A stretch of DNA of 64,000 bases from assembly GCF_048403405.1 (NCBI RefSeq), contig NZ_CP183136.1; one strand, given 5' to 3'. This DNA is from Escherichia coli (GTDB taxonomy: Bacteria; Pseudomonadota; Gammaproteobacteria; Enterobacterales; Enterobacteriaceae). Position numbers and translations under genes: made by a program. A model generated the notes under the pieces. It was not told the origin of the DNA. It did not search any database and saw only the letters and a list, made by a program, of their open reading frames with translations. This document shows, in pieces, positions 3,290-62,473 of this stretch (its first letter is position 1; every line of letters starts with the position of its first letter).

Positions 3290-3660
3290 ACAAAAAGGCT
3301 CAACAGGTTGGTGGTTCTCACCACCAAAAGCACCACACCCTACGCAAAAACAAGTTTTTGCTGATTTTTCTTTAATATCATAGAGTAGTATATGAAAAAT
3401 TAGTATTGTCTTAACTCTCTTTATGATATTTAAAAAAGCGGTCGTCGACGCAGCTACAGCAACGCGCCGACACCGCTTTGTAGGGGTGGTACTGACTATT
3501 TTTATAAAAAACATTATTTTATATTAGGGGTGCTGCTAGCGGCGCGGTGTGTTTTTTTATAGGATACCGTCTAGGGGCGCTGCTAGCGGTGCGTCCCTGT
3601 TTGCACTATGAATTCTAGTGTTTCGAAATTAACTTTGTTTTATGTTTAAAAAAGGTAATA
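3290..3660 (-). other. oriT: oriT, R100-type; nic on minus strand at about 3334/3335
   Basis: Minus strand reads tttttgcgtagggtgtggtgcttttggtggtgagaaccaccaacctgttgagcc, matching the F/R100 nic region from recall; direct repeats taggggtgctgctagcggcgcg and ctaggggcgctgctagcggtgcg (likely TraM sites) upstream of traM. Confidence 0.8.
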
Positions 3661-27032: not shown

Positions 27033-29367
27033 ATGAGTTTTAACGCAAAGGATATGACCCAGGGCGGTCAGATTGCGTCCATGCGTATCCGCATGTTCAG
27101 CCAGATCGCCAATATCATGCTTTACTGCCTGTTTATTTTTTTCTGGATACTCGTTGGTCTGGTTTTATGGGTAAAAATAAGCTGGCAGACGTTTGTGAAC
27201 GGCTGTATTTACTGGTGGTGTACCACGCTGGAAGGCATGCGGGATTTAATCAAGTCCCAGCCGGTATATGAGATCCAGTATTACGGCAAAACCTTCCGGA
27301 TGAACGCTGCTCAGGTACTGCATGATAAATATATGATTTGGTGCGGAGAGCAGCTATGGTCCGCATTCGTTCTGGCCACAGTTGTGGCACTGGTTATTTG
27401 CCTGATTACCTTCTTTGTTGTCTCCTGGATTCTGGGGCGTCAGGGTAAACAACAGAGCGAAAATGAAGTCACAGGTGGTCGTCAGCTGACAGACAATCCG
27501 AAAGACGTTGCCCGGATGCTGAAAAAAGACGGCAAGGACTCCGATATCCGGATTGGCGACCTGCCGATTATCCGGGATTCCGAAATCCAGAACTTCTGTC
27601 TGCACGGCACGGTCGGGGCCGGTAAGTCGGAGGTTATCCGTCGTCTGGCCAACTACGCCCGTCAGCGCGGTGATATGGTGGTGATTTATGACCGTTCAGG
27701 GGAATTTGTTAAAAGTTACTATGATCCCTCCATCGATAAAATCCTGAATCCGCTGGATGCCCGCTGTGCCGCATGGGATTTGTGGAAGGAGTGCCTGACA
27801 CAGCCGGATTTTGATAATACCGCAAATACTCTGATCCCGATGGGTACAAAAGAGGACCCGTTCTGGCAGGGTTCAGGACGTACCATTTTTGCGGAAGCGG
27901 CGTACCTGATGCGTAATGACCCCAACCGCAGCTACAGCAAACTGGTGGACACACTGCTTTCCATCAAAATCGAAAAACTGCGTACCTTCCTGCGTAATTC
28001 ACCGGCGGCCAACCTGGTGGAAGAGAAAATCGAGAAAACGGCGATTTCCATCCGTGCTGTGCTGACCAACTACGTGAAAGCCATCCGTTACCTGCAGGGG
28101 ATTGAGCATAACGGTGAGCCCTTCACCATCCGTGACTGGATGCGTGGTGTCCGGGAAGATCAGAAAAACGGCTGGCTGTTTATCTCATCGAACGCCGACA
28201 CCCATGCCTCCCTGAAGCCGGTGATCTCCATGTGGCTGTCCATTGCCATTCGTGGTCTGCTGGCAATGGGAGAAAACCGTAAACGTCGTGTGTGGTTTTT
28301 CTGTGACGAGTTACCCACGTTACACAAACTGCCGGATCTGGTGGAGATCCTGCCGGAAGCCCGTAAGTTCGGTGGCTGTTATGTGTTTGGTATCCAGTCC
28401 TATGCCCAGCTGGAAGATATCTACGGTGAGAAAGCGGCGGCCACGCTGTTTGACGTCATGAACACCCGTGCTTTTTTCCGTTCTCCCGAGCCATAAGATT
28501 GCAGAGTTCGCTGCCGGTGAGATTGGTGAGAAAGAGCACCTGAAAGCCAGCGAGCAGTATTCCTACGGTGCTGATCCGGTACGTGACGGGGTATCGACCG
28601 GTAAGGATATGGAGCGTCAGACGCTGGTCAGTTATTCCGACATTCAGTCTCTGCCGGATCTGACCTGCTATGTCACTCTGCCCGGACCGTATCCGGCAGT
28701 AAAACTCTCTCTGAAATATCAGGCACGACCGAAGGTCGCTCCGGAGTTTATTCCGCGTGACATCAACCCGGAAATGGAGAACCGTCTGAGTGCCGTACTT
28801 GCCGCAAGGGAAGCAGAAGGTCGTCAGATGGCCAGCCTCTTCGAACCGGAGGTTGCCTCCGGAGAAGATGTGACTCAGGCTGAACAGCCACAACAGCCAC
28901 AACAGCCACAACAGCCACAACAGCCACAACAGTCACAACAGCCACAACAGCCACAACAGCCACAACAGCCACAACAGCCACAACAGCCACAACAGCCACA
29001 ACAGCCACAACAGCCACAACAGCCACAACAGCCACAACAGCCACAACAGCCACAACAGCCACAACAGCCACAACAGCCACAACAGCCAGTGTCTCCTGCC
29101 ATCAACGATAAGAAGTCAGATGCAGGTGTGAGTGTTCCGGCAGGGGGGATCGAGCAGGAGCTGAAAATGAAACCGGAAGAAGAGATGGAACAGCAACTGC
29201 CACCCGGGATCAGTGAATCCGGTGAAGTGGTGGATATGGCCGCTTATGAGGCATGGCAACAGGAAAATCATCCGGACACCCAGCAGCAGATGCAGCGTCG
29301 TGAAGAGGTGAACATTAATGTGCACCGGGAGCGCGGGGAGGATGTTGAGCCGGGAGATGATTTCTGA
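27033..29367 (+). pseudogene. traD: TraD coupling protein, one frameshift near 28480
   Basis: ORF 27033..28496 (Walker A GTVGAGKS) and ORF 28468..29367 (continuing ...[23 protein letters not shown]) are adjacent TraD segments in different frames; contains the QQP repeat. Confidence 0.75.
28885..29086 (+). repeat. 9-bp tandem repeat (cagccacaa), about 22 units, encoding the TraD C-terminal QQP tract
   Basis: Directly visible periodicity, with one variant unit cagtcacaa. Confidence 0.9.
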
Positions 29368-52384: not shown

Positions 52385-52560
52385 AAACTCCTTATGGTGT
52401 TTTTTTGGTGTTTGTTTGGGTGTGTTTTGGGCTTTAAATGGGTTTATTTGTCAAGTTTACCCCATTTTAACTATCAATCAATGATTATTTGTCTTGTTTT
52501 GGTGTTTTGTTGGGCTTGGTATGGGTTGTTTTTGGGTTTTGTTTGGCGGATAACAAAAGA
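52385..52560 (-). other. parC: parC centromere
   Basis: Tandem short iterons (ggtgtttgtttgg variants) directly upstream of parM. Confidence 0.65.
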
Positions 52561-52870
52561 TGTCGCCGGGCTCCTCTTTTTACTGCGCCGGCTGACGCGG
52601 CGCGGCATAAACGCTGCCTGTGGTCAGTGTCCCGCGTCCGGTGGGCACGGGACGGGCGCTTTTACCGCTCCCGGCTGGCGTCGGTGACAGTGTACGCCAG
52701 CCTGTCGCCCTTTTCTGATGAACGCCCTTCAAGCCGCTTTCGCGGCATAGCCTTGCCGTCAGAAAGACGACGGCTGCGGTATTCCACGGTCGGCCTGACC
52801 CGTTACCGGACGCGGTGAACAGCCCACAGGCAGCGGGGAACGGGCGCCACAGGGGCGCCCTCCCGATGCT
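52555..52870 (+). repeat. About 320-bp leading-region repeat, family 2, copy 1
   Basis: Near-identical to 53855..54185; GC-rich; ends at the start codon of the downstream gene. Confidence 0.8.
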
Positions 52871-52873
52871 CCT

Positions 52874-53815
52874 GTGAGGATAATTCCCATGCCAAACTGG
52901 TGCTCGAATCGTATGTATTTTTCTGGTGAACCGGCACAGATCGCTGAGATTAAACGACTGGCCAGCGGTGCAGTCACACCGCTTTATCGCCGCGCCACAA
53001 ATGAAGGTATTCAGCTGTTTCTGGCCGGAAGTGCCGGACTTCTGCAGATCACTGAAAATATCCGCTCTGAGCAGTGCCCCGGAGTGACGGCTGCCGGACG
53101 TGGTGCTGTATCACTGGAAAATATCGCGTTCACCCGCTGGCTGACACACCTGCAGAACGGTGTACTGCTGGATGAGCAAAACTGCCTGATGCTGCATGAA
53201 CTCTGGCTGCAGAGCGGTACTGGACAGCGTCGCTGGGAAGGGTTACCGGATGATGTCAGGGAAACTATCACTGTGCATTTCACCGCAAAAAGAGGTGACT
53301 GGTGTGACATCTGGGGTAACGAGGATGTATCGGTGTGGTGGAACCGTCTGTGTGACAACGTACTGCCGGAAAAAACCATGCCGTTTGACCTGCTGACGGT
53401 TTTGCCGACCCGCCTGGATATTGAAGTGAATGGCTTTAACGGCGGTGTTCTGAACGGTGTTCCTTCTGCATATCACTGGTATACAGAACGGTATGGCGTG
53501 AAGTGGCCTTGTGGGTATGACCTGAATATCAGCAGTCAGGGGGAAAACTTCATTCAGGTGGATTTCGACACGCCGTGGTGTCAGCCGGAAAGCGACGTTG
53601 TTGCAGAATTAAGCCGCCGTTTCGGCTGCACGCTGGAGCACTGGTACGCCGAACAGGGCTGCAATTTCTGTGGCTGGCAGTTGTATGAGCGCGGAGAGCT
53701 TGTTGATGTGCTGTGGGGGGAACTGGAATGGTCTTCCCCGACAGATGACGATGAGCTGCCGGAAGTCACCGGACCTGCGTGGATAGTCGACAATGTGACG
53801 CATTATGGCGGATGA
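52874..53815 (+). CDS. Hypothetical leading-region protein (313 aa)
   Basis: Long ORF bracketed by the family-2 repeats; no family recognised. Confidence 0.6.
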   Translation: MRIIPMPNWCSNRMYFSGEPAQIAEIKRLASGAVTPLYRRATNEGIQLFLAGSAGLLQITENIRSEQCPGVTAAGRGAVSLENIAFTRWLTHLQNGVLLDEQNCLMLHELWLQSGTGQRRWEGLPDDVRETITVHFTAKRGDWCDIWGNEDVSVWWNRLCDNVLPEKTMPFDLLTVLPTRLDIEVNGFNGGVLNGVPSAYHWYTERYGVKWPCGYDLNISSQGENFIQVDFDTPWCQPESDVVAELSRRFGCTLEHWYAEQGCNFCGWQLYERGELVDVLWGELEWSSPTDDDELPEVTGPAWIVDNVTHYGG

Positions 53816-55597: not shown

Positions 55598-56374
55598 ATG
55601 AACGAAAACACAACGCTGAACGCACTGATTTGTCGCCACGCCCGTAACCTGCTGCTGGCGCAGGGCTGGCCGGAAGAGACGGATGTTGACCAGCGAAATC
55701 CGAACCATCCGGGCTGGATCAGCATTTACGTGCGGCTGGATGCGCCCCGGCTGGCGACGTTACTTATCAACCGTCACGGCGGCGTACTGCCGCCGGTCCT
55801 GGCGTCTGCCATGCAAAAACTGACCGGAACCGTGGCGGAACTTGTACTGTCCGGCAGCCAGTGGCAGGCGCTGCCGGTACTTCCGGCAGACGGAACGCAG
55901 GTGTTTTTCCCGTATGCCGGTGAATGGCTGACGGAGGAAGAAATCAGGGCAGTTCTTGATGCGGTGCGCAATGCAGTACGAAGCATCTGTTACCAGGTGG
56001 CAGACGATGCGCGGCGTATCCGGGCGGCGCTGACCACCACCGGTCAGACGTTGCTGACCCGGCAGACGCGCCGCTTTCGTCTGGTTGTGAAGGAAAGCGA
56101 TTACCCCTGCTGGCTTGATGAAGATGACGAAAATCTGCCCGTGGTGCTCGATGCCATTCTGAACCGTGGCGCCCGTTTTTCCTCTGTGGAAATGTACCTG
56201 GTCTGTGAGTGTGTGGAGCATATCCTGGCCAGTGGTCTGGTCTGTGATGTGCTGCGTATACCGGATGAACCGTCCCGTCGCTGGTTTGACAGGGATATTC
56301 TGCGGGAGGTTGTTCTGGAGGCACGGGATGAAATCCGCAGCATGGCGGATGCACTGGCGAAAATCAGGGGCTGA
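55598..56374 (+). CDS. Hypothetical protein (258 aa)
   Basis: Long ORF in the leading region. Confidence 0.55.
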
Positions 56375-56379
56375 TGATG

Positions 56380-56790
56380 GCGGGGAAAATCCCCGCCTTT
56401 TTCCTGCCGGTCCCCGGACAGAGCACAAAGGAAGTCGCCGCCGGCTCCGCTTTACCCGGCCATGCGGGGCATGGCCTTGTGGGGGTTCAGTTATGTGGCC
56501 TCAGCGTCGTGTGCGGGCTGTGCCGTGCCTCCATCGTAGCCGGGCTTCTGCGGGCGGGTTGCAAGGTAAGGTGAACCGCTGCGGTCACCCGGTCCCTCCT
56601 TCCCGTCTGCCGTGATTTTCCGGTCGTTCACCCGCTCAGATTTCGCGGTCTCACCCTCCAACTCCCGCCAGCCGTGTGCGTCAGGCTGCGGCTTCCCTTG
56701 CGCCCTTGCAACCCTGCAGGCCCGGCAAAGATGGAGGCACGGCACCGCCCGGTGTCGCGGAATATGTGAACAACGGAGGAAAACATCATG
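56380..56790 (+). promoter_or_regulatory. Structured GC-rich intergenic region upstream of the klcA homologue
   Basis: Long-range inverted repeats (tgccgtgcctccatc at 56519.. pairs with gatggaggcacggca at 56730..; ttgcaagg / ccttgcaa). Confidence 0.5.
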
Positions 56791-57213
56791 CAATATGCGA
56801 AACCTGTCACTCTGAACGTTGAAGAGTGTGACCGTCTCTCCTTTCTGCCTTACCTGTTTGGCAACGATTTTCTGTATGCCGAGGCGTATGTGTACGCGCT
56901 GGCGCAAAAAATGATGCCGGAATATCAGGGAGGCTTCTGGCATTTCATCCGCCTGCCGGACGGTGGCGGTTACATGATGCCGGATGGCGACCGTTTTCAT
57001 CTGGTCAACGGTGAAAACTGGTTTGACCGCACTGTGAGTGCTGATGCCGCAGGTATCATCCTGACTTCCCTTGTGATTAACCGCCAGTTGTGGCTGTACC
57101 ACGACAGCGGGGATGCGGGACTGACACACCTTTACCGGATGCGCGATGCGCAGTTGTGGCGTCACATCGAATTTCACCCCGAATGCAATGCGATTTACGC
57201 GGCACTGGACTGA
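56788..57213 (+). CDS. klcA: KlcA/ArdB-family anti-restriction protein homologue
   Basis: 141 aa, resembles KlcA/ArdB from recall (LSFLPYLFG...[15 protein letters not shown]...[12 protein letters not shown]). Confidence 0.7.
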
Positions 57214-57870: not shown

Positions 57871-58065
57871 TACAGGGCAGGCGGTGGAGGCCGCCTGTCA
57901 GCCCGCGCGAAAACCCCTGGCAGGCTGGCGCCTGCCGGAAGGGAAGCGGGCCACGCTGGCGCGTCGCCCGTTACCCTTCCCGTTTGTGATGTGTCCGGAA
58001 TGTTTTTTCCTGATGTTATGTTTCTGTGGTTACTGTTCTTCTTCTTCCTCTTCTTTCCGTTCCTC

Positions 58066-58603
58066 TCCTGTTTATGCCTTTTCCGGGCGTCCCCCTGGCG
58101 GGGCGGGCTGTCGTGAACGGAGCCAGCGGAGCTGTCTCCGCCCTGGCGGGCTTCCATCCCTGACGCAAAACCCCGGGTTTGCAGCGACCGGAACGGTCGC
58201 GCCACCCCTGTCGCGCCGTGGCCTGCGCTCCCGGCATCCCGGCAAAAAGACGCCGGGATGTAAGGAGCAACGCCGTTTCGCAAACCGCGCTTCACGTCGT
58301 TGCAGCGGGTCCCTGCTCATTGCCTGCCGGGTGCCACACACCCGTATGAGTCCCTGTCGCCGGGGGCTGATACAGCCACAACCTGCCGCACTGACTGTCC
58401 AGGGTAAATGAACAGCCCACAAAATTTTTTACCCAAAACCCGGTAAAAAATTTTGCGTTCTGCCCAGGACAGGTGCGTCAGGCCGTGGCAGTGATGCCCC
58501 TTGCGGCGAAGGTTCTCAAACGGGTGAAGTTCATACCACAGGGAATACAGCAGCAGGTTCCCGCGAAACGTCAAAACCGCGGCTCCCGAAACTCAACGGG
58601 TGA
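58066..58603 (+). repeat. Frpo-like leading-region repeat, copy B
   Basis: Near-identical to copy C at 61376..61908 and similar to copy A. Confidence 0.8.
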
Positions 58604-58837
58604 TGTTCTTTAAAAATCAGGATTTATTTCAGGCTCCGGCAATACGCATTTATGTGTTCTGTCAGTCATCCGGCTGGCAGGTAATGAAAACGCAGGAACA
58701 GAAGGAGGAAAACACCGGAAAGCGTCAGATGCAGATATGAAAAAAAGCAGGTCAGGGACCTGCTTAATCCACGCCGTAAGAATTGTGCGACCAATTTTGA
58801 CGGCATTGTTAACCAATTTGTCATAAGGAATCCATTT

Positions 58838-59068
58838 ATGACTGTAAGCATTGTTTCACCTTCCGCAGCGGCTGTAAAGCCCCGCCGTCATCCCCGTTTC
58901 AGACGCGAAGACATCCCCGCGCCGGAACTTGACCCCGTGCTGAAAGCCTTCGGGCGACACATTGCCCGGAGTTTTCGCCGGGGGCGTGGTGTACACATCC
59001 CCGCCATGAAAAACACGGCCTTCGGGCAGGTGCTCCGCACACTCGAACTGAAACGCGCTTTTAACTGA
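58838..59068 (+). CDS. Hypothetical basic protein (76 aa)
   Basis: ORF downstream of Frpo copy B. Confidence 0.4.
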   Translation: MTVSIVSPSAAAVKPRRHPRFRREDIPAPELDPVLKAFGRHIARSFRRGRGVHIPAMKNTAFGQVLRTLELKRAFN

Positions 59069-60527: not shown

Positions 60528-61091
60528 ATGCACAGTCAGTTAAAAGAACGTATCCGGCTGATGCGCGCAAGGCTGGATAACGCCGCGCCGGTTGCTGAAA
60601 TCCGGGCTGAATCTCAGCTTTTTGTGACTCCTGCCCCGGTCTGTGATCGCCTGGTGACGCTGGCGGAGATCAGCAACCGTGATCACATTCTGGAACCCTC
60701 TGCCGGCACCGGGGCCATACTGCGGGCGATTCGTCATGTCGCGCCGGGGGCCATGTGTGATGCGGTGGAGATTAACAGCGGGCTGGTCCGGTATCTGCGG
60801 GATAATTTTAACGGTGTCAGGGTTCAGTGTGGCGACTTCATGGAATGGCAGCCGGTGCAGTATTACAGCCGGATTATCATGAATCCGCCGTTCAGTCACG
60901 GGCAGGATATCCGGCATATCCTGCGGGCTTTTTCCCTGTTGCGTCCGGGTGGTGTGCTGGTTGCCGTCTGTCTGAACGGGCCGCGCCAGCAGGAGAAGCT
61001 GTTACCGTTTTCTGATGTCCGCGAGGTGCTGCCGTGCGGCACATTTGCTTATACCCGTGTTCCGACGATGATTATTCGTCTGCGTGCCTGA
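60528..61091 (+). CDS. Putative SAM-dependent methyltransferase (NPPF motif)
   Basis: Motifs EPSAGTGA and IIMNPPF. Confidence 0.65.
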   Translation: MHSQLKERIRLMRARLDNAAPVAEIRAESQLFVTPAPVCDRLVTLAEISNRDHILEPSAGTGAILRAIRHVAPGAMCDAVEINSGLVRYLRDNFNGVRVQCGDFMEWQPVQYYSRIIMNPPFSHGQDIRHILRAFSLLRPGGVLVAVCLNGPRQQEKLLPFSDVREVLPCGTFAYTRVPTMIIRLRA

Positions 61092-61270
61092 TGACTCCGG
61101 GCAGGCGGGAGGATAAATGCCCGTCTGCCCGCGCCGGGAAAAGACCGCGCGCCGGTGGCGCTGAAAGGGGCCGCGCTTACGCGCCGCCCCTTTCATTACG
61201 CGGACGTTCTGCTGTGGGCTTCTGTCTTTTCAGACCTGTCATTTGCTTGTTACTGATGATGTTGTTGTTC

Positions 61271-61327
61271 CTGCTACTGCTACTGCTACTGCTACTGCTA
61301 CTGCTACTGCTACTGCTACTGCTACTG
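61271..61327 (+). repeat. Hexanucleotide microsatellite (CTGCTA), about 9.5 units
   Basis: Directly visible perfect period-6 repeat. Confidence 0.95.
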
Positions 61328-61375
61328 TTCTTCTTTTTTCTGCTGCTCTGATTACTGTCTGTTTTGTTGTTCTCC

Positions 61376-61908
61376 TGCTTATGCCTTTTCCGGGCGTCCC
61401 CCTGGCGGGGCGGGCTGTCGTGAACGGAGCCAGCGGAGCTGTCTCCGCCCTGGCGGGCTTCCATCCCTGACGCAAAAACCCGGGTTTGCAGCGACCGGAA
61501 CGGTCGCGCCACCCTTGTCGCGCCGTGGCCTGCGCTCCCGGCATCCCGGCAAAAGACGCCGGGATGTAAGGAGCAACGCCGTTTCGCAAACCGCGCTTCA
61601 CGTCGTTGCGGCGGGTCCCTGCCCGTTGTTCTGTCCGGTGCCATTCACCTGTTTAAGCCCCTGTCGCCGGGGGCATAGACAGCCACAACCTGCCGCACTG
61701 ACTGTCCAGGGTAAATGAACAGCCCACAAAATTTTTTACCCAAAACCCGGTAAAAAATTTTGCGTTCTGCCCAGGACAGGTGCGTCAGGCCGTGGCAGTG
61801 ATGCCCCATGCGGCGAAGGTTCTCAAACAGGTGATGGTGAATACCGGAGGGAACAAAAGGCAGGTCCCCGCAAAACGTCAAAACCGCGGCTCCCGAAACT
61901 CAACAGAT
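61376..61908 (+). repeat. Frpo-like leading-region repeat, copy C, upstream of ssb
   Basis: Near-identical to copy B; ends about 40 bp before the ssb start. Confidence 0.8.
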
Positions 61909-61945
61909 GATGGGGGCTGAAAACATCAACAGAAGGAGACACATC

Positions 61946-62473
61946 ATGGCAGTTCGTGGCATTAACAAGGTCATTCTTGTCGGTCGTCTGGGAAAAGATC
62001 CGGAAGTCCGTTACATCCCCAACGGGGGCGCAGTGGCAAACCTGCAGGTGGCCACGTCAGAAACCTGGCGCGACAAACAGACGGGGGAAATGAAGGAGCA
62101 GACGGAATGGCACCGCGTGGTGCTGTTCGGCAAGCTCGCGGAAGTGGCAGGTGAATATCTGCGTAAGGGGGCGCAGGTCTACATTGAAGGCCAGCTTCGC
62201 ACCCGTAGCTGGGAAGATAACGGTATTACCCGTTACGTCACCGAAATCCTTGTTAAAACCACGGGCACCATGCAGATGCTGGGGAGTGCACCACAGCAGA
62301 ACGCTCAGGTGCAACCGCAGCCTCAGCAGAATGGTCAGTCACAGAGTGCTGACGCGACGAAAAAAGGGAGCGCGAAAACGAAAGGCCGTGGACGTAAGGC
62401 TGCGCAGCCGGAGCCTCAGCCGCAACCACCGGAGGGGGAGGATTACGGGTTTTCAGACGATATCCCGTTCTGA
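61946..62473 (+). CDS. ssb: Plasmid single-stranded DNA-binding protein
   Basis: [28 protein letters not shown]... OB fold and acidic tail DDIPF. Confidence 0.9.

Follow-up and report, generated by a model that had tools for sequence, protein, structure and literature searches.

A hypervariable CTGCTA microsatellite upstream of the Frpo2-type block and ssb of an F-like plasmid is an ortholog of the Escherichia coli O157 typing locus VNTR-37

We analysed a 64,000-nucleotide stretch of Escherichia coli DNA, hereafter the window, that covers most of an F-like conjugative plasmid. A motif at 3327–3343 that reads GTAGGGTGTGGTGCTTT on the minus strand is presumably the F-type nic site (F/R100 oriT), and the transferred strand is thus the minus strand. 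The transferred strand serves as the template for ssb and other leading-region genes (PMC11541004). An array of the hexanucleotide CTGCTA lies between the stop codon of a leading-region methyltransferase ORF (61091; the ORF contains IIMNPPFSHG and ends in a TGA at 61089–61091) and a Frpo-homologous block that starts at about 61376 and is followed by ssb at 61946. This is the position, between an NPPF methyltransferase stop and the Frpo element of ssb, at which the initial annotation had correctly placed it. The features of the interval are collected in Table 1.

Table 1. Features between the methyltransferase gene and ssb, in window coordinates
Feature	Coordinates	Strand	Basis
187-aa ORF for a class I SAM-dependent methyltransferase of the leading region, NPPF motif	60528–61091	+	ORF list, translation, annotation of relatives
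Three GC-rich inverted repeats directly 3' of the methyltransferase stop	61099–61130, 61149–61161, 61163–61194 (span 61099–61194)		Sequence reading, three-copy alignment
VNTR-37 forward primer site, 2 mismatches	61183–61209	+	Primer from PMC3321953, pattern search
T-rich, A-poor low-complexity spacer holding the CTGCTA array	61205–61380	+	Composition scan, single-strand DNA fold
(GAT)2(GTT)3 trinucleotide tract adjoining the CTGCTA array	61255–61269	+	Locus comparison
CTGCTA microsatellite, ortholog of MLVA locus VNTR-37 / O157-37	61271–61327	+	Direct reading, Tandem Repeats Finder, shuffles, relatives, primers
VNTR-37 reverse primer site, exact match	61342–61378	-	Primer from PMC3321953, pattern search
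Peripheral structured domain of the Frpo-homologous block, transferred strand; predicted fold unstable	61376–61549	-	Fold, three-copy conservation
Main Frpo2-type stem-loop (single-strand promoter), transferred strand	61551–61899	-	Fold (z = -10), alignment to F Frpo2
Plasmid ssb, 175 aa, ATG at 61946 (mechanical ORF list: 61907)	61946–62473	+	Reading, ORF list, annotation of relatives

Direct reading of the array gives 9.5 perfect copies over 57 nt with 0 deviations, and Tandem Repeats Finder (TRF) reports a period of 6, 9.5 copies, 100% matches and a score of 114. No other perfect period-6 array in the window is as long. When the sequence was shuffled 200 times with dinucleotides preserved, the longest array of this kind had a mean of 13.7 nt and a maximum of 17 nt. 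A perfect microsatellite of about 9.5 units had been reported from the initial reading, and its exact coordinates were confirmed by reading, TRF and shuffles.

The surrounding spacer is composed, on the plus strand, of 10% A, 25% C, 19% G and 46% T; on the transferred strand it is purine-rich and, by single-strand DNA folding, predicted to be unstructured. Hairpins comparable to the inverted repeats that open the interval also precede the low-complexity tracts at the two other Frpo copies of the window (A and B). No T run follows these inverted repeats on the plus strand, and the sole site that a terminator scan returned near them is on the minus strand (61161–61149). Terminator-like sites overlapping the CTGCTA array were not found, the only nearby ones lying elsewhere, and no sigma-70-like promoter was found in 60900–62000, so that the array does not sit between promoter hexamers. 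Rfam likewise yielded no family at the array. The single Rfam match in the 52–64 kb part of the window is to AS-pc01 ('Antisense to pHK01_035') at 58742–58843 on the minus strand, between Frpo copy B and a small ORF at 58838–59068, scoring 79.4 bits where the gathering score is 79.

A comparison with typing schemes that use variable-number tandem repeats at multiple loci (MLVA) revealed that the locus is already known. The primers published for VNTR-37, GCCGCCCCTTACATTACGCGGACATTC and GCAGGAGAACAACAAAACAGACAGTAATCAGAGCAGC (PMC3321953), have convergent sites around the array with a predicted amplicon of 196 bp. The reverse primer matches with 0 mismatches, and the forward primer, which has 2 mismatches in the window, matches exactly and at the same position in three pO157 loci (L002, L003 and L007) that share the methyltransferase / repeat / ssb arrangement. 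VNTR-37 is a 6-bp repeat on pO157, recorded as 'inside ORF L7083' (Table 1 of PMC3321953), for which 202 German O157 strains yielded 11 alleles, with 3–17 repeats, and a diversity index of 0.82 (PMC3321953). Under the name O157-37, it mutated at 8.5e-5 mutations per generation during serial passage, and EDL933 is listed with 7 units (PMC3777172).

The 6-bp unit, the flanking primer sites, the residence on a pO157-type / F-like plasmid and a polymorphic copy number are all found here as well. On these sequence features, the CTGCTA array is orthologous to VNTR-37 / O157-37, an established MLVA marker for E. coli O157, with which it shares the unit, the flanks, the position between methyltransferase and ssb and whole-unit polymorphism. 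It differs in that its host is a conjugative-type F-like plasmid of ~60–70 kb, in the two forward-primer mismatches and in its first unit, since pO157 alleles start with the variant ATGCTA. The array also resembles other hexanucleotide MLVA loci of E. coli O157, such as the non-coding VNTR-25/TR4, in being a short perfect 6-bp array that changes by whole units, but loci of that type are chromosomal whereas the CTGCTA array is carried across species on F-like plasmids. Hexanucleotide VNTRs of O157 have mutation rates of ~1e-4 to 1e-5 per generation, and no function is known for them (PMC3777172, PMC3321953).

The initial annotation had anticipated that array length might vary between isolates and had proposed comparing repeat number across related plasmids. 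That comparison shows that the number differs. Direct counts at 17 orthologous loci from E. coli, E. albertii, K. pneumoniae and Salmonella range from 1.5 to 19.5 perfect units: 1.5 (L009, L010), 2.5 (L008), 3.5 (L001), 5.5 (L012), 7.5 (L013 and the pO157 loci L003 and L007), 9.5 (L006, equal to the window), 10.5 (L004, L018), 12.5 (L005 and the pO157 locus L002), 17.5 (L017) and 19.5 (L016). pO157 loci thus differ among themselves (12.5 vs 7.5 units). Arrays are perfect in all fetched loci with the sole exception of the ATGCTA first unit of the pO157 lineage. The adjoining (GAT)n(GTT)n tract also differs between loci, by 3 or 6 nt (CTGATGATGTTGTTGTTC, CTGATGTTGTTGTTC, CTGATGATGTTC).

A larger sample revealed the same pattern. 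A megablast search of PLSDB with 61000–61950 matched at least 5000 records, and in the best 40 of these the flanks are nearly identical and differences from the query are almost solely gaps. Match lengths in the best 40 (914, 915, 933, 939, 945, 951, 956, 963 and 969 nt) comprise at least eight length classes, and all except 914 and 956 are offset from 951 nt by multiples of 6. With a shorter query (61000–61450), 4,553 plasmid records matched, including 3601 from Escherichia, 655 from Klebsiella, 149 from Salmonella and 119 from Shigella; of 5,426 complete E. coli genomes, 3,073 had matches to the same query, in 3,573 records. An allele of 8.5 units is constant in a set of plasmids from Klebsiella and E. 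coli that share a length of 70,656 bp, so that over short epidemiological spans the tract seems to be stable, and over longer ones diverse.

In one relative (L011, pDEC5B-5 of E. coli O55:H7), the sequence after the methyltransferase stop (990–1700) diverges past the first hairpin and contains extra annotated small ORFs, and a pattern search of that segment did not find the CTGCTA array.

Long-read assemblies are error-prone at low-complexity tracts, traD of the window has a 1-nt frameshift and the match length of one relative (956 nt) is not offset by a multiple of 6, all of which could be taken to mean that repeat length is an assembly or sequencing artefact. This is barely conceivable given that 451 nt containing the 9.5 units are 100% identical in an independent record (pCREC774-5), that most near-identical relatives differ by whole units and that fragment sizing by PCR in the MLVA literature gives the same polymorphism (PMC3777172, PMC3321953).

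Length differences in whole units between otherwise identical flanks support the slipped-strand expansion that had been suggested for the array. The observations are the variation itself and the mutation rate measured for the pO157 ortholog, and it is from these that we infer slippage. Because pO157 is typed as non-mobilizable in database records, variation can arise without conjugation, during ordinary vegetative replication. Copy number changes in whole 6-bp units, most likely through strand slippage in ordinary plasmid replication.

Hypermutable tandem repeats near promoters call to mind the simple-sequence contingency loci of phase-variable genes in Haemophilus, Neisseria and Campylobacter. 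Unlike those loci, the CTGCTA array lies neither in a demonstrable gene nor between -35 and -10 hexamers, has a unit that is a multiple of 3 and therefore cannot shift a reading frame, and is associated with no known on/off phenotype.

Identical short tandem units in a plasmid intergenic region could also be binding sites for a plasmid or host protein, in the manner of iterons or centromere-like sites. Such arrays would be expected to have a conserved unit number and spacing and a cognate protein. The units here follow one another directly at a 6-bp period, which mismatches helical phasing, and number anywhere from 1.5 to 19.5 among related plasmids. The corresponding positions at Frpo copies A and B contain different motifs, and no candidate cognate protein was identified. 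A binding-site role is extremely improbable.

We next consider the coding capacity of the tract. The array could encode poly-Ser (on the minus strand, as L7083 of pO157; 61177–61644 in the window) or a poly-Leu hydrophobic tail (on the plus strand, from an ATG at 61091). The placement of VNTR-37 within L7083 in the MLVA literature (PMC3321953) speaks for this, as do the hypothetical proteins annotated over the array in many RefSeq records, the frame-keeping 6-nt unit and, in the window, a TGATG overlap of the methyltransferase stop with a start codon. Five of the six frames are open across the array in each locus, however, and open frames are thus uninformative here. The 45 variable sites among seven orthologs show no excess at third codon positions in any candidate ORF; at codon positions 1, 2 and 3, the minus-strand ORF has 11/15/10 such sites, the plus-strand poly-Leu ORF 9/8/5 and a plus-strand Ala-Thr ORF 7/6/2. 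Orthologs carry frame-breaking 1-nt indels within the minus-strand ORF (at 61509 and 61556), which is for the most part the antisense of the Frpo stem-loop, and the overlapping ATG is lost (TGAAG) in L008–L010.

RefSeq annotation across the array is itself inconsistent, with a minus-strand 'hypothetical protein' or 'pilus protein' in some records and plus-strand hypothetical proteins in others. The annotated strand and frame switch between plasmid lineages, and the ORF over the array is flagged 'frameshifted' in four records (L006, which is identical to the window, L016, L017 and L018). NCBIfam matches were not found for any ORF across the array. Length changes observed at the array are all multiples of 3, as a coding region would need, but motifs of 3 and 6 nt explain this equally well. 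Three candidate ORFs, namely the minus-strand poly-Ser ORF 61177–61644, the plus-strand poly-Leu ORF 61091–61351 and the plus-strand Ala-Thr ORF 61243–61470, were thus rejected in view of frame openness, codon-position counts, 1-nt indels, lack of start-codon conservation, inconsistent or frameshift-flagged annotation and the lack of NCBIfam matches. A coding role for the array is very unlikely, and we conclude from these sequence comparisons that the CTGCTA tract is non-coding and that the 'inside ORF L7083' label reflects an over-called ORF.

ORFs annotated as hypothetical proteins in RefSeq are routinely called inside or antisense to Frpo stem-loops, at 61714–61920 (plus strand) and 61177–61644 (minus strand) and at the equivalent positions of the other copies. 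The WP_000547965 family just 5' of ssb is an example. Such ORFs are probably over-annotation of structured non-coding DNA.

Frpo, or ssi, single-strand promoters of F-like and IncI1 plasmids were reportedly described by Masai and Arai in 1997. The block downstream of the array is conserved in three paralogous copies in the window (~700–1150, 58070–58600 and 61376–61925). As single-stranded DNA, the minus strand of 61200–61945 folds with a free energy of -180 kcal/mol (z = -10). Of 251 aligned positions, 242 are identical between 61659–61908 and the Frpo2 fragment of the F plasmid in the published Frpo-acrIIA4 construct (sequence from supplementary file 11 of PMC11541004), and the designation of this block as the ssb Frpo copy in the initial annotation is therefore correct. 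The F fragment aligns to 61659–61908 only, so that the published reporter fragment begins ~330 nt downstream of the array.

The array is thus the direct upstream neighbour of an Frpo2 homolog but, in comparison with Frpo / ssi promoters (PMC9849209; PMC11541004), lies outside the folded element, and neither the paralogous copies nor the published Frpo2 reporter fragment contain it. Homology among the three copies begins only at ~61376, and the array region does not align with copies A and B. When the transferred strand is folded, the centroid structure leaves the array unpaired, with a mean pairing probability of ~0.33 vs 0.70 for the Frpo part. When the array was set in silico to between 0.5 and 25.5 units, the minimum free energy (MFE) shifted by only a few kcal/mol and the MFE structure of the Frpo part remained at least 95.6% identical position by position; over this range, no dependence of the predicted Frpo fold on unit number was found. 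In the MFE fold of the transferred strand, 61355–61375 pairs with 61920–61932, before the ssb ribosome-binding site, and closes the Frpo block; this helix is missing in the centroid structure and could be an artefact of the prediction.

We also considered that the purine-rich spacer of the transferred strand might act as an insulator that protects Frpo folding. This idea was rejected, as the main stem-loop was retained to ~99% with random or shuffled spacers, which altered just the poorly determined peripheral domain of the Frpo block.

These results bear on whether the array could be a tuning element. Its place directly upstream of the Frpo-homologous block is compatible with such a role, and pyrimidine-rich tracts are found at the same edge of every Frpo copy in the window. 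Complementary-strand synthesis moreover runs from the repeat through Frpo to ssb, and a different stem-loop, ssp2, stalls it (preprint 10.64898/2026.01.09.698686). The predicted insensitivity of the Frpo fold to unit number and spacer sequence argues against tuning, as do the span of 1.5 to 19.5 units across related plasmids and the location of the array away from promoter hexamers. An anti-CRISPR under an Frpo promoter has been tested in conjugation assays (PMC11541004), and the published Frpo2 reporter fragment lacks the array region. The Frpo2 reporter result shows that the array is dispensable, while being compatible with a modulating effect. Deletion of Frpo2 or ssb is without significant effect on the conjugation frequency of F (PMC9849209), and selection on fine tuning at the array would thus be weak.

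We accordingly regard a tuning role as unlikely, and the effect of unit number on ssb expression is, judged indirectly, probably nil. If unit number did affect early leading-region expression, the alleles would constitute a natural allelic series for plasmid establishment, though nothing here suggests it.

The paralogous Frpo copies provide a view of how the array may have originated. Their low-complexity tracts differ, reading CTGCTCTGACTCTGACTACTGCTGCC at copy A and TTCTTCTTCTTCCTCTTCTTTCC at copy B. The position upstream of copy B holds a CTT/CCT-rich tract with (TTC)x6.7 at 58036–58055 (TRF, alignment), in agreement with the short CTT-rich tract noted there earlier. The array is still present in lineages that have a different downstream Frpo variant (L004, L009–L013), which assigns it to the spacer on the methyltransferase side. 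The sequence of the 1.5-unit allele, TTC-CTGCTA-CTG-TTC, looks like an unexpanded form, and in the simplest account a proto-repeat of this kind would have expanded by slippage inside a slippage-prone tract.

The copy-B tract (58027–58060) is also length-polymorphic, with an additional 21 nt in p1493-3 (L015) and an additional 30 nt in a pO157-like plasmid (L014).

On the plus strand, a pyrimidine content of 70% or more per 120 nt is confined in the window to the segments 328–938, 56491–56954, 57914–58405 and 61118–61490. Three of these four are the upstream edges of Frpo copies, and the remaining one (56491–56954) is upstream of an antirestriction gene (56788–57213). Judged by a yffB-like ORF at 55598–56374 and the primers of the preprint 10.64898/2026.01.09.698686, that segment would be the expected place of ssp2 of F. 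The shared composition could hint that spacer composition, rather than the repeat, is under some constraint.

Complementary-strand synthesis in F runs in the direction of leading-gene transcription and stalls at the foot of the ssp2 stem-loop (preprint 10.64898/2026.01.09.698686). A pyrimidine-rich tract at the foot of a promoter might then be functional or a by-product of the stem-loop, in that pausing at the hairpin foot drives slippage or that tract length tunes the single-stranded time and the induction of ssb and psiB. We consider this quite unlikely. The support found for slippage driven by hairpin pausing consists of co-location, and variation arises in a non-mobilizable plasmid too. 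VNTR-36 of pO157 (L019, 24394–24523) provides a further counterexample, as it lies downstream of a TolA-domain gene with no adjoining Frpo. VNTR-36 primer sites are absent from the window, and a general tie between pO157 VNTRs and Frpo hairpins was rejected.

Considered together, these observations favour, with a probability of roughly 85%, a hypervariable microsatellite in a non-coding spacer, orthologous to VNTR-37 / O157-37, that most likely has no sequence-specific function and a near-neutral length. The array would be tolerated because it lies neither in the folded promoter nor in any real gene, and its length may drift almost neutrally.

As it stands, the locus is of small importance, having long been in use as an epidemiological typing marker of E. 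coli O157. What the present analysis adds is its placement in non-coding DNA upstream of Frpo2 and ssb, where the MLVA literature calls VNTR-37 intragenic (L7083), the evidence against the ORFs called across it and its broad distribution on F-like plasmids. The marker is not specific to pO157, since thousands of records of F-like plasmids from four genera match its flanks and repeat. MLVA signal at this locus can thus move horizontally, and the locus could help to tell closely related resistance plasmids apart.

Three other regions of the window drew our attention. traD appears to be split into two ORFs (27033–28496 and 28468–29367; region 27033–29367). The reading frame passes through '...NTRAFFRSP' and then meets an extra C in CGT TCT CCC GAG CCA TAA (CCC at 28485–28487), and removal of one C restores the frame. 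Either traD is truly frameshifted, in which case the plasmid would be transfer-defective, or the assembly has an error in a homopolymer. A second, larger tandem array at 28883–29088 has a 9-bp unit, AACAGCCAC (TRF; 22.9 copies, 98% matches, perfect run of 155 nt), and encodes a (QQP)n tract of TraD, in its C-terminal part; the array is probably also length-variable. Finally, two T/G-rich clusters of degenerate 11-mers, GGTGTTTTTTG x3.2 and TTGTGTTTGGG x4.9, lie either side of an AT-rich stretch at 52396–52546 and are followed by a GC-rich segment (52560–52870) upstream of an ORF at 52874–53815. This region may be an array of binding sites, or it may be a further single-strand promoter region at the distal end of the leading region.
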